This document shows, piece after piece, positions 788 through 56,098 of a stretch of 64,000 bases of DNA (its first letter is position 1; every line of letters begins with the position of its first letter). This DNA comes from Candidatus Pacearchaeota archaeon (GTDB lineage: Archaea; Nanobdellota; Nanobdellia; Pacearchaeales; GW2011-AR1). The notes below the pieces were generated by a model. It was not told the DNA's origin and did no database searches. It saw nothing but the letters and a program-made list of their open reading frames with translations. Made by a program: the position numbers and the translations under genes. The DNA is taken from assembly GCA_017609205.1 (NCBI GenBank), contig JAFCEL010000001.1, positions 86,183 to 150,182 on the forward strand. Reading direction: 5' to 3'.

Positions 788-829
788 AGATAAAAAAACA
801 AAAGAGGTTTTTAAGATATTTGCTATTTT

Positions 830-1408
830 TTAAGCAACCCTCTCTAATTGGTTTCTGATTTGCTTAGACCATTCTATGAGTAATTTTTTCATAGAGGTTC
901 TGTAAAGATAATTATATTCTGGTTTGGACATTCGTCTTTCTTCTATTTTGATTTGTAATTGAGCGACATGGTCATGTATAATTCCAGCAATATCCCAAAA
1001 GGGATCTGAATAGTCTGGATCATGAAATCTTGCTGCTTTGCTAATCTTTCTATAAACTGAATCTAAACTTCTTGTTCCATCAACAGGACAAACTTCTGAA
1101 TTTCTCTCATTACTATTGTAAATTCGGAGCTCAGTATCAGACATAGAATTTAATCTCTCTAGATTATTGAAAATTATTTTTCCTAATCGTATATTTCTCT
1201 CTGATTTTTGAACTGATTCAATCTGCTTGTCGAGATAATCTCTAATTCTTCCCATAACTGATAATAAAAAGAGTATTATTAAAAATATTGGTAATTTAGT
1301 ATATAAGTAATCCAAAAATTTAATATAACATATTGCGACTGCTGTTATACGCTCCTGACAGGGACGAAGATTGCAAAGCAATCCAAAAAGTTGGCGAAGG
1401 GACGCCAT
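830..1408 (-). CDS. hypothetical protein, probable N-terminal membrane anchor; start uncertain
   Basis: Long ORF. Its first ~30 codons lie in a G/C-rich, non-coding-looking patch (1325-1410). Likelier starts are TTG at 1315 or ATG at 1255. Confidence 0.45.
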   Translation of the reverse strand: MASLRQLFGLLCNLRPCQERITAVAICYIKFLDYLYTKLPIFLIILFLLSVMGRIRDYLDKQIESVQKSERNIRLGKIIFNNLERLNSMSDTELRIYNSNERNSEVCPVDGTRSLDSVYRKISKAARFHDPDYSDPFWDIAGIIHDHVAQLQIKIEERRMSKPEYNYLYRTSMKKLLIEWSKQIRNQLERVA

Positions 1409-1410
1409 GC

Positions 1411-1791
1411 TTATTTTCTTTTACGTTTGGAATACCAGTTGATAAAAATTATCCAATACATGAACAGCAATGCGACAATACTAATCCAGTATGGTTTTTC
1501 AAAAACTGGTTTTGGTAGTGTATTGAGATATGCTATTACACTTATTGTTACTATTACTGAGAGCATAGCAACAACAATTTTTCGCAGTTTGTCTTTTTCC
1601 ATTTTTGTTACCTCATTTGTTTTACTTTGATATAATTTGTATGCAGCCAATACGGCAAGGAAAACAATAGCCAATCCTGCAGAAATTTTTGGGTCAAGCA
1701 TTGCTGAAAGCAACACGAAGAAAACTGCTAAGATGGCAATTATACCTTCTGTTTTATTACTCATACTCATTTTATATTTATAATCTTTCAT
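1411..1791 (-). CDS. small integral membrane protein
   Basis: Three long hydrophobic segments in the translation and a basic C-terminal tail (SKRKRK). Confidence 0.55.
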   Translation of the reverse strand: MKDYKYKMSMSNKTEGIIAILAVFFVLLSAMLDPKISAGLAIVFLAVLAAYKLYQSKTNEVTKMEKDKLRKIVVAMLSVIVTISVIAYLNTLPKPVFEKPYWISIVALLFMYWIIFINWYSKRKRK

Positions 1792-2365
1792 TTTTCACTG
1801 CATAAATTGTCAAATGTTGTTCTGGTAAAAAATTGAATTCCTTTTCCAACAAATAACCTGCCTCTCCCATTTCTTGAATGATAGTTTCCTTAGGAATATA
1901 GTGTCCAAATAATCCACGGAAAGTGAAAATTTTACCTTTTTTATACTCAATGATAGCAATTCTCCCATCAGGTTTTAAAAATCGTTTTAGTTTCTTAAAA
2001 TACTCTACTCGATTTGGTATGTGATGGGTGACATTACGCATGAATATCAAATCTAAGCTTTTTTCAGGTAAATCTAATTTATCTCGTGATACAAGCGTTG
2101 GTATAACATTATTCAATCCTTTTTCTTTGGCATTGTTTTTAAGATACTCTAAAAATTCTGGCTTTGTATCAATAGCATAAACTCTTCCTCCTTCCCCCAC
2201 CATTTCGGCAAATCGCAGTGAAAAATAACCCCCTCCTGAACCAATATCTGCAATACTTTGACTAGGTTTTAATGCAATAGCTTCTATAATCTGGTCTGGC
2301 TTGTTTTTAGGGTCAGAAGCTTTTTTATTGAATATCTTAGCTTGAAAGTTTGCCATTTTCCTCAT
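1778..2365 (-). CDS. class I SAM-dependent methyltransferase
   Basis: Motif I DIGSGGGYF followed by the acidic loop YAIDT. Confidence 0.8.
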   Translation of the reverse strand: MRKMANFQAKIFNKKASDPKNKPDQIIEAIALKPSQSIADIGSGGGYFSLRFAEMVGEGGRVYAIDTKPEFLEYLKNNAKEKGLNNVIPTLVSRDKLDLPEKSLDLIFMRNVTHHIPNRVEYFKKLKRFLKPDGRIAIIEYKKGKIFTFRGLFGHYIPKETIIQEMGEAGYLLEKEFNFLPEQHLTIYAVKNERL

Positions 2366-2809
2366 TTCATAAATTAATTATTGTTTCTTTTAATATTTTT
2401 TTGTTTCAGGCATCCCGAAGCCGATTGCATAACATCGGGCTTAAAAGACCTGAGCATTGCGAAGGCTCGAAGTGATAAATTTTTTCCTCGAATTTGACCT
2501 TTGGAATGTAGCAAAGCGAAATGACGAGCGGAAAATTCAGAGCTGAAAAAATTTTGAACATTCGAGAGTTTTTCCGTAGGGAAAATTTGGGAAAACTCTG
2601 ACTTTTCCAAAAGATAACAAAGGAGTTTTCTTGTTAAAAGCTGTTCGCCGACCGACAAAGTCGGCACGAACTGACGCTACAGCGTCCTCGTGAATCACCG
2701 ATGAGTGGATGGTGGGTTGTTTGTCTAAAACCCAATGTATTTGAGAAATCGCCTTTTTTGCTTCTTTTTTTAAAAAGAAGATGGGGTTCCACTTTTTTGA
2801 TTTTTCAAA
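2366..2809. repeat. G/C-enriched non-coding island A (member of a 4-copy family)
   Basis: No credible ORF. Contains AATTTGGGAAAA (2584-2595) with a downstream TTTTCC partner, CCTCGTGAAT (2686-2695) and GGATGG (2707-2712). Has a terminal hairpin CTTCTTTTT/AAAAAGAAG followed by GGGGTTCCAC (2783-2792). Confidence 0.6.
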
Positions 2810-3057
2810 TTAATCCTTTCTTAGATATTCTAAACCTTTTTCAGTTATTTTTATCTGGAAATATGGTTTGCCACTTTTAGGATGTTTTTCTTTACTTTCT
2901 ATTTTAAGAAAACCATAAGATTCTAATTCTTTACAATTAGACCTTATAGTATTAAAACCAGTATTAACTTTTCTCTCAAGTTGAGCCAATGTCATAGGCG
3001 AAGATTTTATTAAACCTAAAATCTTCTTTTTATATCAAATGAGCTACGCTTGGACAT
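2810..3057 (-). pseudogene. winged-helix DNA-binding protein split by a 1-nt frameshift in a homopolymer run
   Basis: ATG at 3055-3057 reads MSKRSSFDIK and then stops. Adding one base to the T5 run at 3027-3031 fuses it to KKILGLIKSSPMTLAQLERKV... of ORF 2810..2995, giving an 82-aa wHTH-like protein. Confidence 0.5.
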
Positions 3058-3115
3058 ACTACAATAAAAGAGTAAGTCTTAAATATCCCAACTCATAATA
3101 TTATAGTAAGCTAAA

Positions 3116-4252
3116 ATGTCTCAAAAAGAAAATAAAAAATCAAGAAAGAAATTATGGTTGTGGATACTATCAATTATATTTATTGTTGGAGGAATGAGCA
3201 CTTTATCAGATTCTTTTTTTGCAGGAGTCTTTGCATTTGTGGCGGGTGCAATAATTTGTCCTCCAATTATTAATATTATTAAAGAAAAATCAGAGGGTAA
3301 AGCAAAAACTTGGATATTTGTAACTGCTTTTATTGTCTTAGTGTCTTTTAGTGGAATGGCTCTTCCAAATTCAGAGAATTTTCAAAAGGATATATCCTTG
3401 CCCTCAACAATAAACATTATCTCGGATGTTAACCTAACAATACCTGAAAATACAAAAGAAGCAATCTCTAAAACAGAAGTTTATAGATACTGGAGTAATA
3501 ATATAAATGATGGACAAAAAAAATTAACTCTTCTTCATTATAATAAAGAAAGATATGGAAAATTTCTGGAATATTTAGACTCACAAAATCTTAAAGAAGA
3601 TTTTAAAAGATTGTGTGGTAACGAATTAGTGCCTAAAGACATGCTTGTTTCTAATGAAAGGGGTCTCTTTCTCCATATTGGATTAGATGATGGATTTGCT
3701 GTATGTGACTTTGTTTCTGAAGAAATAACTTCTGAATTTGAAAATCAAGAAAATACAACTCAAAAACAAGCCCAACAAAAATGTATCCCTAATTGGAAAT
3801 GCGGAAAATGGACAATCTGTTCTAACGAAGTTCAAACAAGAATATGCACAGATAAGAATGATTGTGGAACCATTGAAGAAAAACCTATTGAAACCCAAAA
3901 TTGTAAAGATTATGATTTAGAGATGAGTATAGACGAACTATTAAATGAGTTTAGCGGATTAACAAAACTTCAGCAAGAAGAAAAAATTAAAGAATTAAAA
4001 GGTAAAAGAATAAAAACATCAACAACGGCTTATAAAATAGACAAAGCCTCACTTTCTACACAATATGTAGTTATGGATGATGATTATCTCTATCCATCTG
4101 TAAAAGCTTTCTTTCCTGCTGAAGAAAAAGATAAACTTCTAAAAGTAAATATTGGGGATAAGATAACATTCATCGGCGAGTTTGTTACATATAAACAAGG
4201 AACATATGTGCCTAGTTATGTTGAATTTACAAAGTCAAAATTGGTAGGTTAG
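3116..4252 (+). CDS. membrane-anchored protein with an extracellular Cys-rich module
   Basis: N-terminal hydrophobic helices. Contains the motif CIPNWKCGKWTICSNEVQTRICTDKNDCG. Confidence 0.6.
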   Translation: MSQKENKKSRKKLWLWILSIIFIVGGMSTLSDSFFAGVFAFVAGAIICPPIINIIKEKSEGKAKTWIFVTAFIVLVSFSGMALPNSENFQKDISLPSTINIISDVNLTIPENTKEAISKTEVYRYWSNNINDGQKKLTLLHYNKERYGKFLEYLDSQNLKEDFKRLCGNELVPKDMLVSNERGLFLHIGLDDGFAVCDFVSEEITSEFENQENTTQKQAQQKCIPNWKCGKWTICSNEVQTRICTDKNDCGTIEEKPIETQNCKDYDLEMSIDELLNEFSGLTKLQQEEKIKELKGKRIKTSTTAYKIDKASLSTQYVVMDDDYLYPSVKAFFPAEEKDKLLKVNIGDKITFIGEFVTYKQGTYVPSYVEFTKSKLVG

Positions 4253-4259
4253 ATATTAA

Positions 4260-4613
4260 ATGAAATTTGGTATTTCTGAAGAAGATGAGTTAAATATCCT
4301 AAAGGATTGGAGAGATAATTATTCTTATTCAAAAGTCCCTAAAAATCTTCAGAAAAAAGTTAAAGACCAACAGGCAGTAAATTTGTTAATGGAATTTACC
4401 AAAGATTCAGAGATTGATTATCAAAGAATTAGTAATAGGATAAAAGAACTTGAAGATAAAATTCAAAAAGAAAATCAAAAAGAAAAAGAGCAGAGTTTTT
4501 GGTATATTCTCAAAAAAGAATTTAAAGAAAAAGCTGCAAAGGCGATTGTTTGGGTTGTTATGAGTATTATTGGATTTATTCTAGGATTTTTAGTTAGTTA
4601 TTTCTTGAAATAA
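4260..4613 (+). CDS. hypothetical tail-anchored protein
   Basis: Charged coiled-coil-like body and a single C-terminal hydrophobic helix. It lies 7 nt after the upstream gene. Confidence 0.5.
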   Translation: MKFGISEEDELNILKDWRDNYSYSKVPKNLQKKVKDQQAVNLLMEFTKDSEIDYQRISNRIKELEDKIQKENQKEKEQSFWYILKKEFKEKAAKAIVWVVMSIIGFILGFLVSYFLK

Positions 4614-4980
4614 TGGAACCCCCAAAAAGTAATATCCGAAAAATTTGCGTGAGCTTTGTGAACCTCTTAACCTTTATTATACGAAATTTTAATTTCGTGA
4701 GTTTCTCCTAGGTCGGTTAAGAGAAGTAAATCCGAAGGATTTATTTCCCGAACTTTTCCTCGTGAGTGAAGAATGAACGAACAGGGCTGAAAAGTGAGGG
4801 CGTAGCGAACTGCAAGTGAGCAGAGTTTTAATCGCTGTTAGTAGAGTTTTTTCGCAGAAAAAACCGAGCCAGAATGCAATGTCCCGAAGGGCTGGCGAAG
4901 AGTAAAAATCAATTTTCAGGGAGGAATTTATTATCTTGCGTTCGCGATAAATTAATAAGTAAGATTTTCATATTAAAATT
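4614..4980. repeat. G/C-enriched non-coding island B
   Basis: Starts TGGAACCCC, the reverse complement of the island A terminus GGGGTTCCA. Contains CCTCGTGAGT (4758-4767). Hairpins include CGAAATT-tta-AATTTCG, AAATCC-gaa-GGATTT and CTCTTAACC...GGTTAAGAG. Confidence 0.6.
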
Positions 4981-5433
4981 ATGCAATTAAGAAAAGCAAC
5001 AGAACAGGACAAAAAAGAGGCAATAAAAATTGCACAAGATTTGAAAGAATGGTTTAATAAAGAAGGAATTAGAAATATGAAAACCGACTTCAAATTTAAC
5101 AATTTGGTCGTGATGAGAAATAAAGGCAAAGTTTCTGGATTTTTATGCTACACAACTAATTGCGGAAAAATGCAACTTATATGGATGGGTGTTGAAAAAG
5201 ATATGCAACAAAAAGGAATTGGAAAAAAACTTCTGAGATGGCTAGAAAAAGAAGCTAAAAAATATAAGTTGCATTCAATTGAAGTTGAAACTTTGCCTGA
5301 TGAAGATGATTACGAACCATACAAAAAAACTCGAGCTTTTTATTATAAAAATGGTTTCAAAAGAATATTATATAAAAAAGCGAGAGTTAAAGGGTGGGAT
5401 GACCAAATTGTTCTGGAGAAAAGAATAAAGTAA
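4981..5433 (+). CDS. GNAT-family N-acetyltransferase
   Basis: Acetyl-CoA-binding motif QQKGIGKKLLRWLEKEA and a size typical of GNAT proteins. Confidence 0.85.
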   Translation: MQLRKATEQDKKEAIKIAQDLKEWFNKEGIRNMKTDFKFNNLVVMRNKGKVSGFLCYTTNCGKMQLIWMGVEKDMQQKGIGKKLLRWLEKEAKKYKLHSIEVETLPDEDDYEPYKKTRAFYYKNGFKRILYKKARVKGWDDQIVLEKRIK

Positions 5434-5798
5434 GCGAGCTTTATCTTGGGTGGGCAAGAAAATTGATTTTTATTTCTACTAACATATGCGATTAAGCGAC
5501 CCGTAGGGCTCGAGCGGAACGGAGTGACCTCGAGAGTTCAAAATCTTTGATTTTGAATTTGGGAAAATTATGGCTTTTAAGAAAAAAGTGAGCGAATGCT
5601 AAAATAATTTTCCGCTTAATCTGCTGTTGCTTGACCGAACGAAGTGAGGCACGAGCTGGGCTAAAAAAAGCCCCTCGTGAGTTTTAATTTTTCTTTTCAG
5701 GTTGGGGGAGGAGGATGGTTTCTCCGACGACAAAAAAATTAGAGAGATTGCCCGCTCGTTTTTTGCTTCTTCTTTTCTAAAAAAGAAATTTGGGCACT
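5434..5798. repeat. G/C-enriched non-coding island C
   Basis: Contains GCGATTAAG (5488-5496), the CTCGAG-loop-CTCGAG hairpin, AATTTGGGAAAA (5556-5567), CCTCGTGAGT (5673-5682) and GGATGG (5713-5718). Has a terminal hairpin plus TTTGGGCAC. Confidence 0.6.
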
Positions 5799-5810
5799 TT
5801 ATCTTTGTTT
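5783..5810. repeat. left arm of an imperfect inverted repeat flanking the RiPP-like operon
   Basis: AAGAAATTTGGGCACTTTATCTTTGTTT. Its reverse complement matches 8298-8327 (14-nt exact core AAAGATAAAGTGCC, one mismatch, one 4-nt indel, then AAATTTCTT). Confidence 0.55.
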
Positions 5811-6464
5811 TAGATACTCAATACATTTTTTTAAAAGTTTTTCAAAATCTCTTTCTTTTTTCCATTTTTTTGAAATATAATTTCTCAGATTTCTCGTTTG
5901 TAAATATCCGACATCCTTAGCAAACCATAAATCTCTAAACTCCAAATTAAGCAAAACTGTTAAAGATTCATTAAGAAAGTTAAATTTGTCATCACCAAGG
6001 AGCCCCCTTAATCTATTCCCATAAGAATTATCAACATGAATATGAAACAACTCATGCCCACAAGTTCTTACTGCCTGTAGCAAAGGACGTTTCAATGAAA
6101 CTGTAAAAGAATTATCTTCATAATAAGCACATCTCCCAACAGTAGTAATGTAAGCGTCAAAATTTTCTAAAGAAATTTGCTTATTTGTAATCTTTTCTAA
6201 CCTATTAAAATACTCATCATTAATACTTTTCCAAGATTTATCCAAAGACTCTCTAAAAAATTCTATGTATGGGGATACATGCAATCTTTCTAAATTTTCC
6301 AATATTTCTCTTTTTGAATCCAAAAAAGATTTTCCTTTAAATGCCCGTATATAATTTGAGTTTAAATCTGTCTTCTCATCTTTCCAAGAACATTCATAAT
6401 TACATAATTGCCAAAAATTTAATGCATCTCTTTCCTTATCAAATTTAAAATTAAGCTTGCTCAT
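5799..6464 (-). CDS. HExxH-motif protein, putative zinc metallopeptidase
   Basis: CGHELFHIH motif. Last gene of the four-gene overlapping operon. Confidence 0.55.
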   Translation of the reverse strand: MSKLNFKFDKERDALNFWQLCNYECSWKDEKTDLNSNYIRAFKGKSFLDSKREILENLERLHVSPYIEFFRESLDKSWKSINDEYFNRLEKITNKQISLENFDAYITTVGRCAYYEDNSFTVSLKRPLLQAVRTCGHELFHIHVDNSYGNRLRGLLGDDKFNFLNESLTVLLNLEFRDLWFAKDVGYLQTRNLRNYISKKWKKERDFEKLLKKCIEYLKQR

Positions 6465-6984
6465 TTTTTAAAATTAAGAATATTAAATTATGTTTATGTG
6501 GAAGAAGATTTGAATGTTCTTCTATTTCTGTTTCACCTTGTAATTCTTTTTCTAATTTCCACCCTTCGTAAAAAGATAATATTTCTTCTTTTGTGGGAAA
6601 AAATTTCCCCTTACTTTTCATGCTATCTAAATTAGACATACAAATAATAAGGTTATATCCTCCATGTGAAGTTGAAGTTTTCATCTTTTCAAATAATTTG
6701 TGAATTTTATCTTTGTTGAAAAAATGCAAGATTAAAGAGGCAATTATTAAATCATTATCTTTTCCAAAATCTTCTGTTGTTATATCCCCCGATATAAATT
6801 CAAAATTTTTAAAGGCACCATCTTCAAAAGCATTCCTTTTATCAATTCCTTTCGCACTTATTCCTTTTCTGCTAAAAAATAAAGACATTAAACCTTTTCC
6901 GCATCCTAGATCCAAGACCTTTTTCAATTCTTTATTTTGAAAAAAATTCAAAAATTCACTTTTACTTTGTTTTATGTTTATCAT
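6451..6984 (-). CDS. class I SAM-dependent methyltransferase
   Basis: Motif I VLDLGCGKGLMS. Overlaps both neighbours. Confidence 0.75.
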   Translation of the reverse strand: MINIKQSKSEFLNFFQNKELKKVLDLGCGKGLMSLFFSRKGISAKGIDKRNAFEDGAFKNFEFISGDITTEDFGKDNDLIIASLILHFFNKDKIHKLFEKMKTSTSHGGYNLIICMSNLDSMKSKGKFFPTKEEILSFYEGWKLEKELQGETEIEEHSNLLPHKHNLIFLILKNEQA

Positions 6985-8065
6985 TTTCTAGATATTCCTT
7001 AAAGCACATTGGGTCTTTTGTCATATAATCCCTTGTTATTGCATAAGCTACTGCTCTGCATCCTCTGCAATGAACAACTTTGTCACATAAAGATTTTTCC
7101 CTTATTTTATTTAAATCTCTTAAATCTTGCATAACTTCACTTTCTAAAACTAAATTTCTAAAGCCTTCTTTAATGTTTCCTATAGGAATTGGGAGTCTTC
7201 TGCAAGGATACACTGTTCCATCAGAAAGAACGGAAAGCATTCTAAATCCTGCAGAACATCCACATAAATAAGTATTATTCTCTTTTGATTTTTTGATTAA
7301 ATCATTTTCTCCGTTTTGAAAAATTTGCCATAAAACATCGGATTGCAAAACAGTTATTTTTCCTTTATATTTTTCTACTAAACTATTTGTCTTTTTTAAC
7401 ATTTCATAAACCTCAAAGGAATTGACAAATTTAGGATCTTTCGCTCCCAATTTAGAATCTGGGACATAAGTTTTGAATCCGACTTTTTTAGCACCTGCAA
7501 GATAAGAGTTTTCAATTACTTCTTCAAATTCATCCATGTTTTGCTTCATTAAAGTCATTGCAGAAACAACAGAAATTCCTTCTCTTGAGGCATTACTTAT
7601 TCCTTCCATTGCTTTATCATAAGCGAATTTTCTTCCTCTTATTTTATTGTGAGTTTCTTTTGTTCCATCAATAGAAATTTGAATAGTATCAATTCCTCTC
7701 TCTTTAATTTCTTTTGCTTTTATAGGAGTAATTAATGTTCCATTTGTTAATAAATTAGTAATAACTTCTTGTTTTTGAGTATAATCAAAAATTTTTAGAT
7801 GATCCTTTCTCATTAAAGGTTCTCCCCCTGAGATTGCTATCCTTGGAATCATATCCCATCTTTCTGCAGTTTCTTTTAAATCATCTATCATTGAGAAAAC
7901 ATCTTCTAAACCCATAGGCTCTTTAAACTGTTTGTGGAATGAATTTCCTTCAGAACTATGATAACAATGAGAACACCTTAAATTACACCAATCTGTTGAG
8001 TCCCACTGCAAATAAAGATGTCTTTTTGCCATTTGTTGAAGAGGCAAATTTAATCTAAAAAACAA
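6962..8065 (-). CDS. radical SAM enzyme with C-terminal SPASM-type Cys cluster
   Basis: CNLRCSHCY (CX3CX2C) near the N-terminus. C-terminal CGCSAGF...DGTVYPC...GNI...CDKVVHCRGC...DPMC. The start may be the internal MAKRH at 8029. Confidence 0.9.
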   Translation of the reverse strand: MFFRLNLPLQQMAKRHLYLQWDSTDWCNLRCSHCYHSSEGNSFHKQFKEPMGLEDVFSMIDDLKETAERWDMIPRIAISGGEPLMRKDHLKIFDYTQKQEVITNLLTNGTLITPIKAKEIKERGIDTIQISIDGTKETHNKIRGRKFAYDKAMEGISNASREGISVVSAMTLMKQNMDEFEEVIENSYLAGAKKVGFKTYVPDSKLGAKDPKFVNSFEVYEMLKKTNSLVEKYKGKITVLQSDVLWQIFQNGENDLIKKSKENNTYLCGCSAGFRMLSVLSDGTVYPCRRLPIPIGNIKEGFRNLVLESEVMQDLRDLNKIREKSLCDKVVHCRGCRAVAYAITRDYMTKDPMCFKEYLENDKHKTK

Positions 8066-8256
8066 CCATCATCTGATGCACAAGCATCAGGACCACAAGC
8101 ATCACAAGGATCACAGTGATACTTATCTTTAGAAAGGTTGTATTTTTTCACCTCATCTCTTGGACCGTACTCTCTTACCTGATAAGGTAGGGGAGTCATA
8201 CCACTCAAAAAATCTACTTCTTTTGCTGTTAGCTCAAGTTTGTTTGATTTTTCCAT
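8050..8256 (-). CDS. candidate RiPP precursor peptide (68 aa)
   Basis: C-terminal HCDPCDACGPDACASDDGCFLD (5 Cys, 6 Asp) after a charged leader-like region. Its stop overlaps the radical SAM ORF. Confidence 0.6.
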   Translation of the reverse strand: MEKSNKLELTAKEVDFLSGMTPLPYQVREYGPRDEVKKYNLSKDKYHCDPCDACGPDACASDDGCFLD

Positions 8257-8673
8257 AAATCTTAAGAGTATTAAATCTTTTTAAGTTTTGTTATTGTAAA
8301 AAGATAAAGTGCCTAAATAAATTTCTTGCGTAGCAAGCTTATTTGTTTTTCTGAAAAAAACTAAGCGCACACCTCCTATCTGGGGCGGGTGGTCGGGGGA
8401 TGGCAAAAGACAATTTTATCATTCTTGAAAAATTATATTTAGCAAAGAACAAAGAAAGATTGGTGATTTATCCAAGCGAAAGCGAAGATAGATTTCAATT
8501 TGGACGCAGTCTGGGAACATCGCGATTAAGAGAAGTTTGCGGAACGAAGTGGAGCAAATTTGGGAAAATGCCGAGCTGAGTGTTTTTCCGTTTAAGCCCT
8601 GTTAAACTCCCCGAGCGTTAGCGAGAACGCAGCGTGGTCGAGGAGCGAAGCGACGCAGAATTTTCATATTTCA
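8257..8673. repeat. G/C-enriched non-coding island D
   Basis: Contains GGATGG (8398-8403), GCGATTAAG (8522-8530), the hairpin TTTGC-GGAACGAAGTGGA-GCAAA, AATTTGGGAAAA (8557-8568) and a GCGAAG-rich tail. Confidence 0.6.
8298..8327. repeat. right arm of the inverted repeat flanking the RiPP-like operon
   Basis: AAAAAGATAAAGTGCCTAAATAAATTTCTT. See 5783-5810. Confidence 0.55.
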
Positions 8674-9126
8674 TCATGGGTAATCCTTTAATCCCAAATA
8701 TTTAAATGATGAAAAATTATTTTCTTTGTCTATATTTAATTGTGATATTAATTCCTTAGGATAAAAAGTGACTTTGTCTAAATTTTCTAAATCTAATAGT
8801 TCGATGTCCTCAAGAAGAGCTTCTTTTTCTTCAGGATCAAAACCCTTTTTTAACTCCCCCCTATATTCCTCAACATAGAAATAAAATTCTATTCCCCTTC
8901 CTAGATCTTTATTTTTTAATTCTTTAATATAAACTAACTTTAATTTTAAAATGTCTAAATTTGTCTCTTCTTTTACTTCTCTTTTTATTGCTTCATAAAT
9001 GCCTTCTTCCATTTCTACTCCTCCACCAGGTAAAACATAATATGTAGATTCTTTTTTTGTCATTTTAGTAGTTAACAGCTTGCCATTATGTAGAATTATT
9101 GCAGCGACTCTTAAATTTGTTCTCAT
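8674..9126 (-). CDS. Nudix hydrolase
   Basis: Nudix box GGGVEMEEGIYEAIKREVKEETNL. Confidence 0.85.
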   Translation of the reverse strand: MRTNLRVAAIILHNGKLLTTKMTKKESTYYVLPGGGVEMEEGIYEAIKREVKEETNLDILKLKLVYIKELKNKDLGRGIEFYFYVEEYRGELKKGFDPEEKEALLEDIELLDLENLDKVTFYPKELISQLNIDKENNFSSFKYLGLKDYP

Positions 9127-9266
9127 TTTTCAAAATTTCTTATTTCATATTCGCAATTTAATTTTTTAAATTTCCAATCAGTATCCTATCTTTCATATTG
9201 CTAAGTAATCAAAATAATTTATAAACATTACAATTTGAAAATTAAGAAGTTATCTTCGAAAACAAG

Positions 9267-10085
9267 TCATTCCTCTAAGATCTCTGATTCTTCTTTTAAA
9301 TCCCTATAAGGATCTCCATTATGCTTCAAGAATGTTTCTTTTAACCAGATATGAATTTCACCAAAATGTTGATCCTGTTCAAGCCAGATTTTTTTTGAAT
9401 TTTCAAGATGAAGAAGCGGAGAAAAGGAAGCTATTTTCTCGTTTTTATCTCCTTTAACAAATTCTGTAAAGGAAACTTTAACATGATTCTTGTTCTTTCC
9501 AAAATAGAGAATAAGTGTTTTATGAATTGATTTGATTTTGTCCCTTATGCTGAATTTTTTCTTTGGAAGGGAAAATCCTGTTTCTCTAAGAGCATTTCTG
9601 TTTATGATTCTTTTTTTGATTCTGCGATTTTCTGTATTAATCGCCTTATTTAATGCTGCCATTAATTCCTTTAAGGTCACTCTTTTATAACGAGGGATTG
9701 GGCTTCTTAAGAGCAGTTCTGGAATTTCTTCTTCTAACTCAATTCTTTCCATTGAATATTTCTTTTCTTCTTTTTTCCCAAACAAAATTTCATCTATACT
9801 CTTAATATACTTATTAAGTAGAATTTCTGATTTTATCCTCAGAAGGAGAGACGCTGCCAGAAGAACTTTACTTGATATAAAAAAATCTGCTTCTTCATAT
9901 TCCTTTAGTTTTTCAAGATATTTATCAGACAGAACTATTATATTAACATCCCATGGGTTAAGTTGCTCTGTATTTATTAAGTCATAAATTATATCCTTCC
10001 ACCCAATCTCTCTGCTAAACAAAATCTTTTGTATTTGCTCTTGAGATACAGATTTTTTAATATCCTCTTTTGAAATATTCCTCAT
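9267..10085 (-). CDS. scpA: segregation and condensation protein A (kleisin)
   Basis: N-terminal NPWDVNIIVLSDKYLEKL...LLAASLLLRIKSEILL pattern. An ScpB gene is also present in the window. Confidence 0.7.
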   Translation of the reverse strand: MRNISKEDIKKSVSQEQIQKILFSREIGWKDIIYDLINTEQLNPWDVNIIVLSDKYLEKLKEYEEADFFISSKVLLAASLLLRIKSEILLNKYIKSIDEILFGKKEEKKYSMERIELEEEIPELLLRSPIPRYKRVTLKELMAALNKAINTENRRIKKRIINRNALRETGFSLPKKKFSIRDKIKSIHKTLILYFGKNKNHVKVSFTEFVKGDKNEKIASFSPLLHLENSKKIWLEQDQHFGEIHIWLKETFLKHNGDPYRDLKEESEILEE

Positions 10086-31177: not shown

Positions 31178-32299
31178 ATGAATAATAGGATTTTAATAAT
31201 TTTGATTGGAATGATTGTTTTGACAAGCCTTGTATCTGCAGATTCATGCAGAATAATTAAAAAAAGTGAATGTAACGGGATTGTTCTTTTTGCAGTATCT
31301 TCTCTTGGCGGTCATTCAGAACTTGCAGACCAAGGAAATTATGATTATGTTCTTTGCTGTAATTTCGGGCACAATGGTAAAACTTGCGATGGATCAAATA
31401 AGATTATTGGATTGGAAAGCGAGACAAATGCTCATGCTGAAATCCCATCTTATAATAGCTATGATAACTCTGTCTGTTACGAGGATTTAAGCTGCACAGA
31501 GAGAACAACCTGCAACTCAGATGAACTTCAACTTTTCTCATTATCAAATACAACAAATGCTCACGTAGGAAATTATGAATTGTTTGAAACAAAAATATGC
31601 TGTACATCTGATTTAATTGATTTGGATGGGGATGGTATCTTGAATATTCATGACCCAGATTATAATGGAGACGGAAGACCTGACAAGAGATACAAAAACA
31701 TTGATAAAAATGGGGATATTGACGGAGATGGTATTTTGAATATTCATGATGCAGACATGGATGGAGATGGTATCTTGAATGGACATGATCCTGACTTTGA
31801 CGGAGATAATAATATGGATGAGCCATACGAACATATATCTCCAAATGGGGATATTGACGGAGATGGTATTTTGAATATTCATGATGCAGACATGGATGGA
31901 GATGGTATCTTGAATGGTGATGATTTTGACGCTGATAACGATGGGGTTTTTGATTCCTCCTTTTGCGGTAATGGGGTTAAAGAAACTGACGAAGAATGTG
32001 ATGATGGAAATAATATAAATGGTGACGGCTGTTCTAATTTTTGTGTAAGGACTACAAGTAATGAAGATTCAGACGATGATGACAAAAAAGAAAAAGATAA
32101 AGACGATGGATTAGAAATTTATTATAAAAAAGATTCTACCAAACATCTTGACGAAGAATACCCTTCAACTTCGACAATTACTCTTGATTCAGAAAAAAGA
32201 ATTACAGAAATATCCCTTACAAAAACTCTTCCATTGCTATTCATTATGGGAATTGCCATACTCTTGATAATTATTTTAATTATTGCTTTAAGAAAATAA
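31178..32299 (+). CDS. secreted, C-terminally anchored Cys-rich protein with a TNAH-triplet N-domain and Ca-binding Asp-rich repeats
   Basis: Signal peptide. Three TNAH-type repeats. DGDGILNIHDxD thrombospondin-type-3-like repeats. CGNGVKETDEECDDGNNINGDGCSNFC module. C-terminal TM helix. Confidence 0.75.
   Translation: MNNRILIILIGMIVLTSLVSADSCRIIKKSECNGIVLFAVSSLGGHSELADQGNYDYVLCCNFGHNGKTCDGSNKIIGLESETNAHAEIPSYNSYDNSVCYEDLSCTERTTCNSDELQLFSLSNTTNAHVGNYELFETKICCTSDLIDLDGDGILNIHDPDYNGDGRPDKRYKNIDKNGDIDGDGILNIHDADMDGDGILNGHDPDFDGDNNMDEPYEHISPNGDIDGDGILNIHDADMDGDGILNGDDFDADNDGVFDSSFCGNGVKETDEECDDGNNINGDGCSNFCVRTTSNEDSDDDDKKEKDKDDGLEIYYKKDSTKHLDEEYPSTSTITLDSEKRITEISLTKTLPLLFIMGIAILLIIILIIALRK
31708..31917 (+). 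repeat. two perfect 75-bp direct copies (31708-31782 and 31843-31917) inside the CDS
   Basis: Both copies read AAATGGGGATATTGACGGAGATGGTATTTTGAATATTCATGATGCAGACATGGATGGAGATGGTATCTTGAATGG. Period is 135 bp. Confidence 0.9.
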
Positions 32300-32367
32300 A
32301 AAATTAGTTCAAGATATATTCTTACTTCTAGGATTATAACAAGACTAAAGGTTTAAATAGTTCTAAT

Positions 32368-32645
32368 GGGGGATTGTAATGTAGACCAGGTCGGCGGGTT
32401 AGCCCTCCGCCAATTGCAAATGGGCTTTAGGCAGACTGCAAGGAAGTCGGTGATAGGAGCGTTGGAGAAGTCTTTGTTCGGACGTTGACGTTTTGTCCTT
32501 CTCGACCTTGCAGATGCGAACTGGGTCAGGCCTTGACCGGAGCAGCCCTAAACATTTGTTAAGGTGCTTGAAGGGTAGCAGAACCGAGGAAGAACAGAGG
32601 TAGCTTTTTCAACTATCCTTGAGCTGGCTTTCGGGTCTACACTAA
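32368..32645 (+). ncRNA. signal recognition particle RNA (archaeal 7S)
   Basis: G/C-rich island. 5' TGTAAT Alu-domain motif. GGGTCAGGCC...CCGGAGCAGCC S-domain-like motif. 5' GTAGACC pairs with 3' GGTCTAC. TTTAAATA box upstream. Ends are approximate. Confidence 0.7.
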
Positions 32646-44574: not shown

Positions 44575-45456
44575 ATGGAATCAAAGGAGTCAGGGGGATT
44601 GTTAACAAAACCTCTTATTCTTATAGGCATTATTTTTATTTCTGCAATTGCAGTCAGTGCTTATATAAGCAATCAAAAACATAATTCTGGGAATATTTTA
44701 ATGAATGTTAATGGCCATAAAATGACATTGAAGGAGGCAATTGAAAACAATTTTATTTCTAAAGAAGCAACTCCAGATAAAGATTATACTACCTCGGTTT
44801 TAGTGGGTCATAATGCAAATGAGATTTGGGTTTCTGTCGACGGTAATGAGTCTACATTAGAACAAGCCATCAATGGTGCAGGTCTGTGTGGAAGTTCTAT
44901 TATTACATCTTATTCAAATCCAAAACCAAACCCAGGACATTATGCAGATGAAGTCGAGATTACTATTAATGGGGACACAAAAACATTGCAACAGGCAATT
45001 GACGATGGGGATTTTTGTAATAATTTTGTAAAAGATTGCAAAGCAGATGGCGGCGAAATTGCAGATTGTGGAGGAACTCTGTGTTGTAAATTTAGTGGTA
45101 GTTCTTGTCCAACAGGTCTTGGATGGATTTCAAATGGTTGGAGTGAAAGTTCTGCTCAAACGGTATGTGGATTAGCTAACGTTTATCCAAGTTGCACAAA
45201 ATTCACAGGTAGTTGTCCTACAAGTTGTTGCACAACTAGTTATCATACATGGAGTCATACTATGGTTAGAGAATATTGTTATGCAAGTGGGATGGCAAAA
45301 GGAAATTTACCAAATTGTTGTGAATGCAGTGGTTGTTCGAGTTCTCCTTACAGCTGTGGGGGCGACTGTCATGATGGCACCGCAATTTATCAATGTTGTT
45401 CAGGAACCTTAAGATTAAGTAATAAGCTAGTAAATGTCGGTTGCATAAAATCTTAA
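44575..45456 (+). CDS. membrane-anchored surface protein: triple TLxxAI module plus variable Cys-rich C-domain (paralog of 55253..56098)
   Basis: N-terminal anchor. Contains MTLKEAIE, STLEQAING and KTLQQAIDDGDFC. The C-terminal half has many Cys. Confidence 0.7.
   Translation: MESKESGGLLTKPLILIGIIFISAIAVSAYISNQKHNSGNILMNVNGHKMTLKEAIENNFISKEATPDKDYTTSVLVGHNANEIWVSVDGNESTLEQAINGAGLCGSSIITSYSNPKPNPGHYADEVEITINGDTKTLQQAIDDGDFCNNFVKDCKADGGEIADCGGTLCCKFSGSSCPTGLGWISNGWSESSAQTVCGLANVYPSCTKFTGSCPTSCCTTSYHTWSHTMVREYCYASGMAKGNLPNCCECSGCSSSPYSCGGDCHDGTAIYQCCSGTLRLSNKLVNVGCIKS
44908..45017. repeat. 110-bp near-identical inverted repeat, copy 1
   Basis: 109/110 identical to the reverse complement of 55659-55768. 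Encodes SYSNPKPNPGHYADEVEITINGDTKTLQQAIDDGDF. Confidence 0.9.
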
Positions 45457-55252: not shown

Positions 55253-56098
55253 TTATAATTTGCAAAGTACAACACCAGGTCCTCCAGTTATAGGGTCTCT
55301 TAAACAAGCACCACTACTACTTGTGCAAACATAAGAGGAGGGGGTTTCCCAATAACAGCCAACACATAATTGGGCATCTGTTCCAAAATTATCTTGGCAA
55401 CATTGTTGCCCTGTAATTCCAATACAATCCTCCATATATACACATTGGTAATTATATGTACAATCTTGTGTTTTTGAACAAACTCCTCCACAAAAACTAC
55501 AATCAACATTCTCTACAAATGTTCCATCCAAATACTTTCCACAAGTTCTAGTAATTGTTTGAGTTCTTCCAGATTCCAAGTTCTGACAATAACCACACTG
55601 GCTTCTTGTATTATAATTCCAATCAGAATATTGATAAGTGTAAGTATAAACAGGCTGGCAAAAATCCCCATCGTCAATTGCCTGTTGCAATGTTTTTGTG
55701 TCTCCATTAATAGTAATCTCGACTTCATCTGCATAATGTCCTGGGTTTGGTTTTGGATTTGAATAAGAAGTTGTGGGTGTGCTTCCGCATAGATTATTTG
55801 ATGCAATTGCATCTGCTAAAGTCATTTCATTTCCATCAACAGAAACCCAAATCTCATCAGGATTATGTCCAAAACTAACAGAAGTTGTTCCAGAGCTTGT
55901 CGGTGCACTTGCATTTACCCTTAAATAATCTCCTTCAATTGCTTCCTTTAAAGTCATTGTTTTTCCATCGATGTTAACAAGAATATCGCTTGAAGAATGT
56001 TTTTTTCCATAAATCCCTGCGTAAATAATCATTAATGTAAAAACTATGCTAAGAAGAAATGCAGCAACTATTCTCAGTTTTTCTGTCTCTAACTTCAT
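55253..56098 (-). CDS. membrane-anchored surface protein: triple TLxxAI module plus variable Cys-rich C-domain (paralog of 44575..45456)
   Basis: Contains MTLKEAIE, MTLADAIA and KTLQQAIDDGDFC. The C-terminal domain is unrelated to that of its paralog. Confidence 0.7.
   Translation of the reverse strand: MKLETEKLRIVAAFLLSIVFTLMIIYAGIYGKKHSSSDILVNIDGKTMTLKEAIEGDYLRVNASAPTSSGTTSVSFGHNPDEIWVSVDGNEMTLADAIASNNLCGSTPTTSYSNPKPNPGHYADEVEITINGDTKTLQQAIDDGDFCQPVYTYTYQYSDWNYNTRSQCGYCQNLESGRTQTITRTCGKYLDGTFVENVDCSFCGGVCSKTQDCTYNYQCVYMEDCIGITGQQCCQDNFGTDAQLCVGCYWETPSSYVCTSSSGACLRDPITGGPGVVLCKL
55659..55768. repeat. 110-bp near-identical inverted repeat, copy 2
   Basis: Reverse complement of 44908-45017 with one synonymous difference (GGA vs GGG Gly). 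Confidence 0.9.

Follow-up and report, generated by a model that had tools for sequence, protein, structure and literature searches.

Covarying three-way-junction elements in a Pacearchaeota genome are probable fold-back DNA recombination sites bounding gene cassettes and linked to a Xer-like recombinase

Four GC-richer intergenic islands lie within the first 9 kb of the 64,000-nt stretch of archaeal DNA analysed here (the window), and we conclude that two of them, C and D, together with the degenerate A and B, are probably fold-back DNA recombination sites that bound gene cassettes and are served by a Xer-like recombinase. The elements share a conserved structure that is formed preferentially by one strand, they are laid out in arrays in which neighbouring copies obey a boundary rule, complete arrays are linked to a recombinase gene, and the block that holds the elements in the window is present in this genome and missing from close relatives.

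The source genome (G000; 527 kb in two contigs, 32% GC, in an assembly that is 88% complete) is archaeal: among its genes are those for the archaellum ATPase FlaI and for an archaellin N-terminal domain, and the one tyrosine recombinase that it encodes fits the archaeal XerA model. The islands (A, ~2395-2800; B, 4614-4980; C, 5434-5800; D, 8280-8672) had no match in Rfam, either at the gathering score for the islands themselves or at E<=1 for region 2300-8800, and the Rfam matches at the gathering score in the window as a whole were one tRNA and one SRP RNA. The latter (32489-32585, in a GC-rich stretch at 32337-32645) matched the bacterial small SRP model at 40.8 bits against a threshold of 40, and probably represents the conserved core of the S domain in an archaeal SRP RNA that is divergent or reduced. 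A generic repeat finder run on the whole window did not reveal the element family, its output being swamped by AT-rich low-complexity matches, and BLAST of the four islands against each other found common words of 10-18 nt only; the family was recognised by motif and BLAST searches of the whole genome. Elsewhere in the window, tandem 39/96-nt repeats (31619-31944, within the ORF at 31178-32299) code for Asp/Gly-rich units (GDGILNIHD..D.DGDG) that, to judge by their sequence, resemble the calcium-binding repeats of a secreted or surface protein. A 135-nt inverted repeat (44883-45017 and 55659-55793; 91% complementary) sits in two ORFs on opposite strands (44575-45456, plus; 55253-56098, minus), which suggests paralogues that were recently duplicated or converted.

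The family has about 13 copies in the 527-kb genome, C and D included, and the remaining copies lie on the minus strand at ~372-374, 380-383 and 390-391 kb. Five simple copies served to build a first covariance model (R1), which detected 11 copies in the source genome and had hits in 30 of 61 same-order genomes; a contig typically holds several of these hits, on one strand and 0.5-4 kb apart. With 55 matches as its input, a second model (R2) detected the family in 121 of 301 genomes from across the phylum, all from one class, and in 107 of 225 genera. Read along the better-folding strand, which is the strand shown in the window, a site runs N6-AACA, a 2-3-nt bulge, the first arm of the outer helix P1, GAAGT, hairpin P2, (A)TTTGGG, hairpin P3, the return arm of P1 and TGTT-N6'. 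P1 has 10-11 bp with a TTAA core (for example, GCGATTAAGAG with CTCTTAATCGC), P2 is a variable hairpin, and the whole site, 85-160 nt long, forms a three-way junction in which we saw no single-base extrahelical positions. The junction motifs GAAGT and TTTGGG are conserved over the whole class, with R2 scores of 60-88 bits.

A preliminary description of this DNA, made from the letters alone, had proposed that C folds into a nested multi-helix structure, one hairpin of which is kept in D by compensatory changes. Every helix string that it listed for C and D is present (Table 1), and the minimum-free-energy structure of 5483-5630 (plus strand) contains all four of the helices described for C. That fold (-45.4 kcal/mol) is more stable than its shuffled controls (z -3.46, with 1 of 200 shuffles equally good; z -4.38 for the minus strand), whereas D alone is no better than its shuffles (z -0.06 on the plus strand and +1.11 on the minus strand). 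The outer helix is indeed not obviously conserved in D, where it is mismatched, the 5' arm being of the GCGATTAAGAG type and the 3' arm of the TTTAAGCCC type. The proposed conservation of the loop GAACGRAGTG did not survive a wider sample, in which only 4 of 55 copies carry it. What is conserved is the presence of hairpin P2, which is found in nearly every copy with quite different stems, and not its loop; the likeness between the loops of C and D is a local resemblance shared with a few other copies.

Further homologs found with the covariance models allowed the stems to be examined for covariation, and all four helices show it strongly across the family, as the idea of compensatory change had anticipated. 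In the alignment of 55 copies, 90.0% of the cells in 26 pairs are able to pair, as compared with 70.9% after shuffling and 39-54% when the pairing partners are slid, and 253 cells are changed on both sides versus 66 after shuffling, figures that are inflated by the fitting of the alignments to the covariance model and that nonetheless differ by a large margin. Double changes occur at 9 of the 10 pairs of P1, 4 of the 5 of P2 and 6 of the 7 of P3, and AACA and TGTT can pair in 95% of cells; covariation is also strong in a set of 70 copies. In 56 of 62 copies folded with RNA parameters, and in 54 of 61 folded with DNA parameters, the strand used in the model has the stabler fold of the two, and G.T pairs outnumber A.C pairs (78 vs 28; p 1e-6). 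The stability bias and the excess of G.T therefore indicate that pairing of one particular single strand matters, and that strand could be either RNA or single-stranded DNA. Together, family-wide covariation and the strand that folds more stably in 56 of 62 copies agree with the earlier contention that these islands are not decaying DNA.

The further step taken in the preliminary description, from selected structure to functional RNA, is only partly sustained, since the structure is under selection and RNA is not the best reading of elements that behave as cassette boundaries. As RNAs, the elements would be structured non-coding genes or cis-elements, transcribed 5'-AACA..TGTT-3', whose P1/P2/P3 junction serves regulation or processing and whose recombination-like features are secondary. 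We consider this unlikely, even though each helix covaries, G.U pairs are in excess, one strand is the stabler, the unpaired junctions GAAGT and TTTGGG are conserved across the class and the islands are GC-rich in a genome of 32% GC. An RNA model gives no part to the complementarity of neighbours outside the fold or to the recombinase half-site (both described below), nor does it sit easily with the lack of any Rfam match at E<=1, with arrays placed between unrelated cargo genes, with the joint absence of copies and cargo from sister genomes, or with outer helices that are broken in several copies, including D, and yet conserved between genera. The loops, moreover, are mostly c(GNA)g triloops (90 in the 55 copies) and not the GNRA or UNCG tetraloops usual in RNA, and d(cGNAg) is an unusually stable DNA mini-hairpin. 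Because of the genomic context and the abundance of these triloops we prefer single-stranded DNA to RNA, and we infer that the folded form is DNA.

Copies of the element form same-strand arrays, spaced 0.5-1 kb from one another, between unrelated accessory genes (arrays with at least 2 sites less than 4 kb apart were found in G000, G017, G029, G036, G047, G008 and G042), and within these arrays the 6 nt before the AACA of a copy are the complement of the 6 nt after the TGTT of its upstream neighbour. Perfect complementarity of at least 4 nt beyond TGTT/AACA was present in 9 of 30 adjacent pairs from this and related genomes; all 9 fall among the 20 pairs less than 1 kb apart, and in five it extends over exactly 6 nt. 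The background rate was 4% among non-adjacent pairs and 7% when the two flanks of one copy were compared (Fisher p 2e-6 and 4e-8), and only about half of the close neighbour pairs follow the rule. Complementarity between neighbours is the signature that remains, as in integrons, when a circular one-site cassette has entered through a crossover at the foot of the folded site. The ORFs of the cassettes are unbiased in orientation (22 sense, 25 antisense) and cannot be used to orient the arrays, and cumulative GC skew along the contig revealed no origin or terminus by which to judge how an array lies relative to replication. Array sites with flanks such as GCCTAAC/GTTAGGC occur, and many deviate at the R and Y positions of RYYYAAC ... 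GTTRRRY, the inverse core and core sites at the ends of attC.

In the window, the array occupies a variable block that spans all four islands (Table 1). The boundary rule is obeyed there only by the B-to-C cassette, which carries the GNAT gene, and the flanks of A-to-B and C-to-D are mismatched. The array is an orphan, because the only recombinase gene of the genome adjoins another array, at a distance of 280 kb. There are signs of partial decay as well: B lacks AACA, A lacks the 5' arm of P1, P1 of D is mismatched, the mini-site at the left of the array is collapsed and the A-to-B and C-to-D flanks do not match. That mini-site retains the R box and 3 bp of P1 with its interior gone, and we read this weak match as a remnant. 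The cargo consists of typical accessory genes (GNAT, methyltransferases, NUDIX and radical SAM). Between C and D the cargo is an operon of four genes. One codes for a 221-aa protein whose SprT-like match is weak and below threshold, two code for a TehB-like methyltransferase and a radical-SAM/SPASM enzyme, and the fourth is an ORF of 68 aa; the set resembles one for peptide maturation, carried as a cassette. A G-rich motif, GGGGCGGGTGGTCGGGGG, is found upstream of two elements, D (8385-8400) and E8 (C1:382985-383000 in G000).

Table 1 Features of the window. Coordinates are positions in the window; interpretations of features as sites, cassettes or cargo are those put forward in the text.
Feature	Position	Strand	Evidence	Parts and remarks
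Variable 8.5-kb block, putative whole cassette array	815-9266		Comparison with same-genus genomes	Islands A-D, ~12 accessory genes
Collapsed mini-site	1322-1353	+	R2, filters off: 13.6 bits, E 0.34	ATATAACA-TAT-tGCG..tGC-TGTTATAC
Element A (island A), degenerate	2552-2652	+	R2 28.6 bits, E 5.5e-5	P2 and P3 present; TGTT 2642-2645; N6' CGCCGA 2646-2651
Element B (island B)	4700-4846	+	75% identity over 139-147 nt to copy E1 (C1:374056-374184)	P1 kept via two G.T wobbles on the + strand; R2 only 9.9 bits; TGTT 4836-4839; N6' AGTAGA 4840-4845
Hairpin-rich module after B	4846-4920	+	Nearly identical to stretch after E1 (direct comparison)	GTTTTTTCGCAGAAAAAAC..CCCGAAGGG..
GNAT acetyltransferase gene, putative cargo of B-to-C cassette	4981-5433	+	Pfam PF13508 E 5e-12	
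N6 + AACA of C	5475-5484	+	Exact reverse complement of TGTTAGTAGA of B (4836-4845)	TCTACTAACA
Element C	5476-5635	+	Fold z -3.46; R2 39.3 bits, E 1.1e-7	AACA 5481-5484; bulge TAT 5485-5487; P1 5488-5498 with 5613-5624; three inserted hairpins 5501-5557 in place of a single P2; J2/3 TTTGGG; P3 5561-5571 with 5604-5614; TGTT 5625-5628; N6' GCTTGA 5629-5634
C outer pairing	5491-5498 / 5613-5620			ATTAAGCG / CGCTTAAT
C inner pairing	5562-5571 / 5604-5613			GGAAAATTAT / ATAATTTTCC
C inserted hairpin	5509-5514 / 5529-5534			CTCGAG / CTCGAG
C inserted hairpin	5537-5545 / 5549-5557			TTCAAAATC / GATTTTGAA
Module after C	5635-5798	+	Conserved with the 3' part of the element in G017 (other genus) and G002	..GGCACGAG-hairpin-CTCGTGAGTTTT..
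Four-gene cargo between C and D	5799-8256	-	Pfam	
Element D	8511-8610	+	R1 89 bits; R2 65.7 bits, NC marks on P1 pairs	AACA 8516-8519; P1 5' arm 8522-8532; P2 8536-8540 with 8554-8558; TTTGGG 8559-8564; P3 ~8563-8569 with 8583-8589; P1 3' arm 8590-8599, mismatched type; TGTT 8600-8603; N6' AAACTC 8604-8609
D hairpin	8536-8540 / 8554-8558			TTTGC / GCAAA, enclosing GGAACGAAGTGGA
NUDIX hydrolase gene, last cargo before conserved ScpA gene	8674-9126	-	Pfam PF00293 E 3.5e-14	

The 8.5-kb block is missing from three genomes of the same genus (G001, G002 and G003). In G001 and G002, genes that match 119-801 and 9288-10043 of the window are adjacent, the flanking genes in the window being those at 119-787 and the ScpA gene (9267-10085), and in G003 two contigs that carry block-flanking genes overlap. 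The only DNA match from the same genus inside the block is a single module of ~120 nt (5662-5787). This hairpin module, which follows C, has 80% identity to C50:2565-2682 of G002, where it is located on a different contig.

Comparison with G017, a genome of another genus, allowed us to consider which parts of an element travel together. Approximately 45 nt of C, running across the 3' arm of P1, TGTT, N6' and the module, are identical to the C-type element at 5448 on contig C2 of G017, and partial homologues of the 221-aa and radical-SAM proteins come after that element too. The 5' flanks of C and its G017 counterpart differ, each matching its own upstream neighbour. The pairs B/E1 and A/E2 behave likewise, the 3' side being linked and the 5' side different: the module that follows B stays with the 3' side of the element while the 5' flanks of B and E1 differ, and the 3' flank of A (TGTTCGCCGACCGAC..GTCGGCACGA) is common to copy E2 (C1:373290-373400). 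The 3' half of D is 83% identical to L035:72-165 of G017, in which P1 is imperfect too. When the sharing of 3' and 5' flanks was compared at consensus columns there was a weak trend (2.67 vs 1.67 matches in 12 pairs), and the argument from linkage therefore rests on the three explicit cases of B/E1, A/E2 and C/G017. Conservation of the 3' part, TGTT, N6', module and cargo together with a local 5' flank would, from these sequences, place the crossover on the AACA side.

In 6 of 6 arrays (G000, G029, G008, G042, G047 and G038), the last element is followed on its own strand by the gene for a Xer-like tyrosine recombinase paralog. A half-site that comprises N6-(T)AACA and a short hairpin (for example, CTATTAAGCG..CGCTTAATAG) is located 60-110 nt before the recombinase start codon, and 10 nt of it are the reverse complement of TGTT-N6' of the last element at 10, 9, 10, 9, 10 and 9 of 10 positions in the six arrays. 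(The half-site of G008 was read by eye; a script located the other five, and in each of these the match was unique in the region.) The array-linked recombinases group in a tree with moderate branch support (79/85). Beside this clade are six 'solo' recombinase genes, each facing a contig end within 600 nt, and a half-site is present in all 4 of those that have enough upstream sequence. The 14 genes of the other Xer clade are found inside long contigs, with no element within 1.5 kb and no half-site, and this second clade, in genomes having both, is presumably the housekeeping one. In relatives (L055, L063, L064, L065 and L066), the motif AAGTTCG(T/C) occurs 10-25 nt before the start of other-clade Xer genes, after a TATA-like TTTATAA, and may be a conserved promoter-proximal or leader element. 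Between E4, the last full element of its array in G000, and the recombinase half-site is a stretch (C1:371765-371990; L001 5765-5982, minus strand) with ~170 nt of GC-rich hairpins and no ORF, which looks like an 'empty' cassette.

A single PF00589 gene is present in G000, and the recombinases are 270-285 aa long. The G000 protein scores 234.5 bits with NCBIfam NF040815 (XerA; cut-off 220) and 179.5 with TIGR02249, under the cut-off of 265. It aligns continuously, from end to end, with P. abyssi XerA (4a8e), and in two pieces with VchIntIA (2a3v; residues 14-167 of the query to 11-172 of the chain, and 196-270 to 243-318). The gap between these pieces is 28 residues in the query versus 70 in IntI, meaning that ~42 residues of the IntI-specific region are absent. 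In integron integrases the IntI-specific region contacts the extrahelical bases of folded attC.

An ordinary-looking XerA (234.5 bits against 220, end-to-end alignment with the P. abyssi protein) is what might be expected if the sites were duplex DNA. Each end (P1 arm, TGTT/AACA and N6) would then be a double-stranded Xer core site, the cassettes would have inverted sites in the manner of Acinetobacter plasmid pdif modules and would mainly invert or move, and the hairpins would be incidental or terminators; the inverted 10-nt repeats that bound cassettes fit such an arrangement, and random ORF orientation would follow from inversion. We nevertheless regard duplex sites as quite unlikely. P1, P2 and P3 covary rather than keep one sequence, which argues for selection on pairing and not on a protein-binding sequence, a strand asymmetry in folding would be meaningless for duplex sites, and the half-sites are 80-150 nt apart as against 6 nt in dif (PMC8371274).

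Very improbable, in our estimation, is a non-autonomous, MITE-like transposable element with terminal inverted repeats that spread through intergenic regions and has no relation to the recombinase. The family is dispersed and multi-copy, has inverted termini (AACA..TGTT) and includes degenerate copies, but no target-site duplications were seen by eye at the copies examined, co-orientation within arrays is strict, internal sequence varies while pairing is kept, flanks pair with the flank of a neighbour and not with the other flank of the same copy, and the link is specific to one recombinase clade. Terminator or insulator hairpins were also considered as a full explanation and rejected, as they leave the junction motifs, the flank complementarity and the recombinase link unexplained.

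On the preferred reading, that of fold-back DNA sites bounding cassettes, N6-AACA of a circular cassette would pair with TGTT-N6' to give a 10-bp 'R box' at the base of the three-way junction. The Xer-like paralog, encoded at the end of complete arrays behind the half-site N6-TAACA and its one hairpin, would cut and exchange strands at the AACA side, and strand exchange would act on the folded single strand; we infer in particular that it is this recombinase that acts on the folded sites. Cassettes would be inserted and excised as at the attI and attC sites of integrons. Taken jointly, these considerations raise the possibility, to which we give slightly better than an even chance, that a Xer paralog without the IntI domain runs an integron-like cassette system on fold-back DNA sites of a new, three-way-junction class, which occur in ~40% of the sampled genomes of this DPANN class. 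Such a system would either have hit on the integron principle independently or be related to the ancestor of integrons, and would explain archaeal arrays that appear 'integrase-less'.

If a plain Xer paralog does the job of IntI on another kind of folded site, the principle behind integrons would be older, or would evolve more readily, than has been assumed, and tiny, host-dependent DPANN archaea would own a dedicated route for the exchange of accessory genes. Standard detectors, which use an IntI model and a bacterial attC model, may then miss a large share of archaeal cassette arrays: the family occurs in ~40% of the sampled genomes of the class, compared with integrons in ~1% of archaeal genomes (Ghaly et al. 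2022, PMC9668308). In a literature search we found no description of Xer-linked cassette arrays in archaea, the nearest work being that of Ghaly et al., and the motifs GCGATTAAG, CTTAATCGC and TTTGGGAAAA are absent from the supplementary text of that study. There is also a warning here for annotation, namely that an intergenic island which is GC-rich and covarying, in an AT-rich genome, need not be an RNA gene.

Among known systems, structured RNAs of the kind held in Rfam, which form GC-rich intergenic islands in AT-rich genomes, resemble the elements in their covarying multi-helix fold and conserved junctions. The elements described here differ in being multi-copy, organised in arrays and gained or lost with cargo, and in having no Rfam match. 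The likeness to Xer/dif, the system that resolves chromosome dimers, and to the integrative elements and pdif modules that exploit Xer lies in a recombinase above the NCBIfam cut-off for XerA that aligns end to end with XerA (PDB 4a8e, 5hxy) and, as in pdif modules, in modules bounded by inverted recombinase half-sites. The dif site is a 28-bp duplex with two 11-nt inverted repeats and a 6-nt spacer, and PaXerA has been reported to bind stem-loop att sites weakly (both PMC8371274). However, there is one duplex dif site per chromosome, whereas here there are many folded sites of 85-160 nt in arrays, with arms split by a folded insert, and the array-linked genes form a group of their own beside a second Xer clade.

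What defines an integron is a specialised integrase, which recognises folded single-stranded attC DNA by means of an additional domain. The arrays resemble integrons, among them the sedentary chromosomal ones, in several respects: imperfect-palindrome sites 0.5-1 kb apart are co-oriented between accessory genes that are poor in promoters, the site ends keep the triplets AAC...GTT, the start of each cassette can pair with the inner end of the site that belongs to it, and the array ends with a tyrosine recombinase behind a special half-site that may be attI-like, divergent from the array in the integron convention. One strand folds better, and it is the 'bottom' strand in integron orientation; there are orphan arrays elsewhere in the genome, comparable to bacterial CALINs (attC clusters without an integrase); and acetyltransferases and methyltransferases are among the cargo. 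The differences concern both partners. The recombinase here is a Xer paralog without ~42 residues of the IntI-specific region (the additional domain near patch III), and cassette ORFs have no orientation bias, unlike those of bacterial integrons. In an attC site, 55-141 nt long, an unpaired central spacer separates the R box from the L box and single bases are extrahelical, whereas the sites here have a 10-bp R box, a one-sided 2-3-nt bulge and a P1 that closes a three-way junction, over a length of 85-160 nt, and their junction motifs are more conserved in sequence across the class than is usual for attC. Finally, the published archaeal attCs (Ghaly et al. 2022, PMC9668308, Data S9), such as a 59-nt site from Nanoarchaeota, are canonical short hairpins, unlike the three-way junctions described here.
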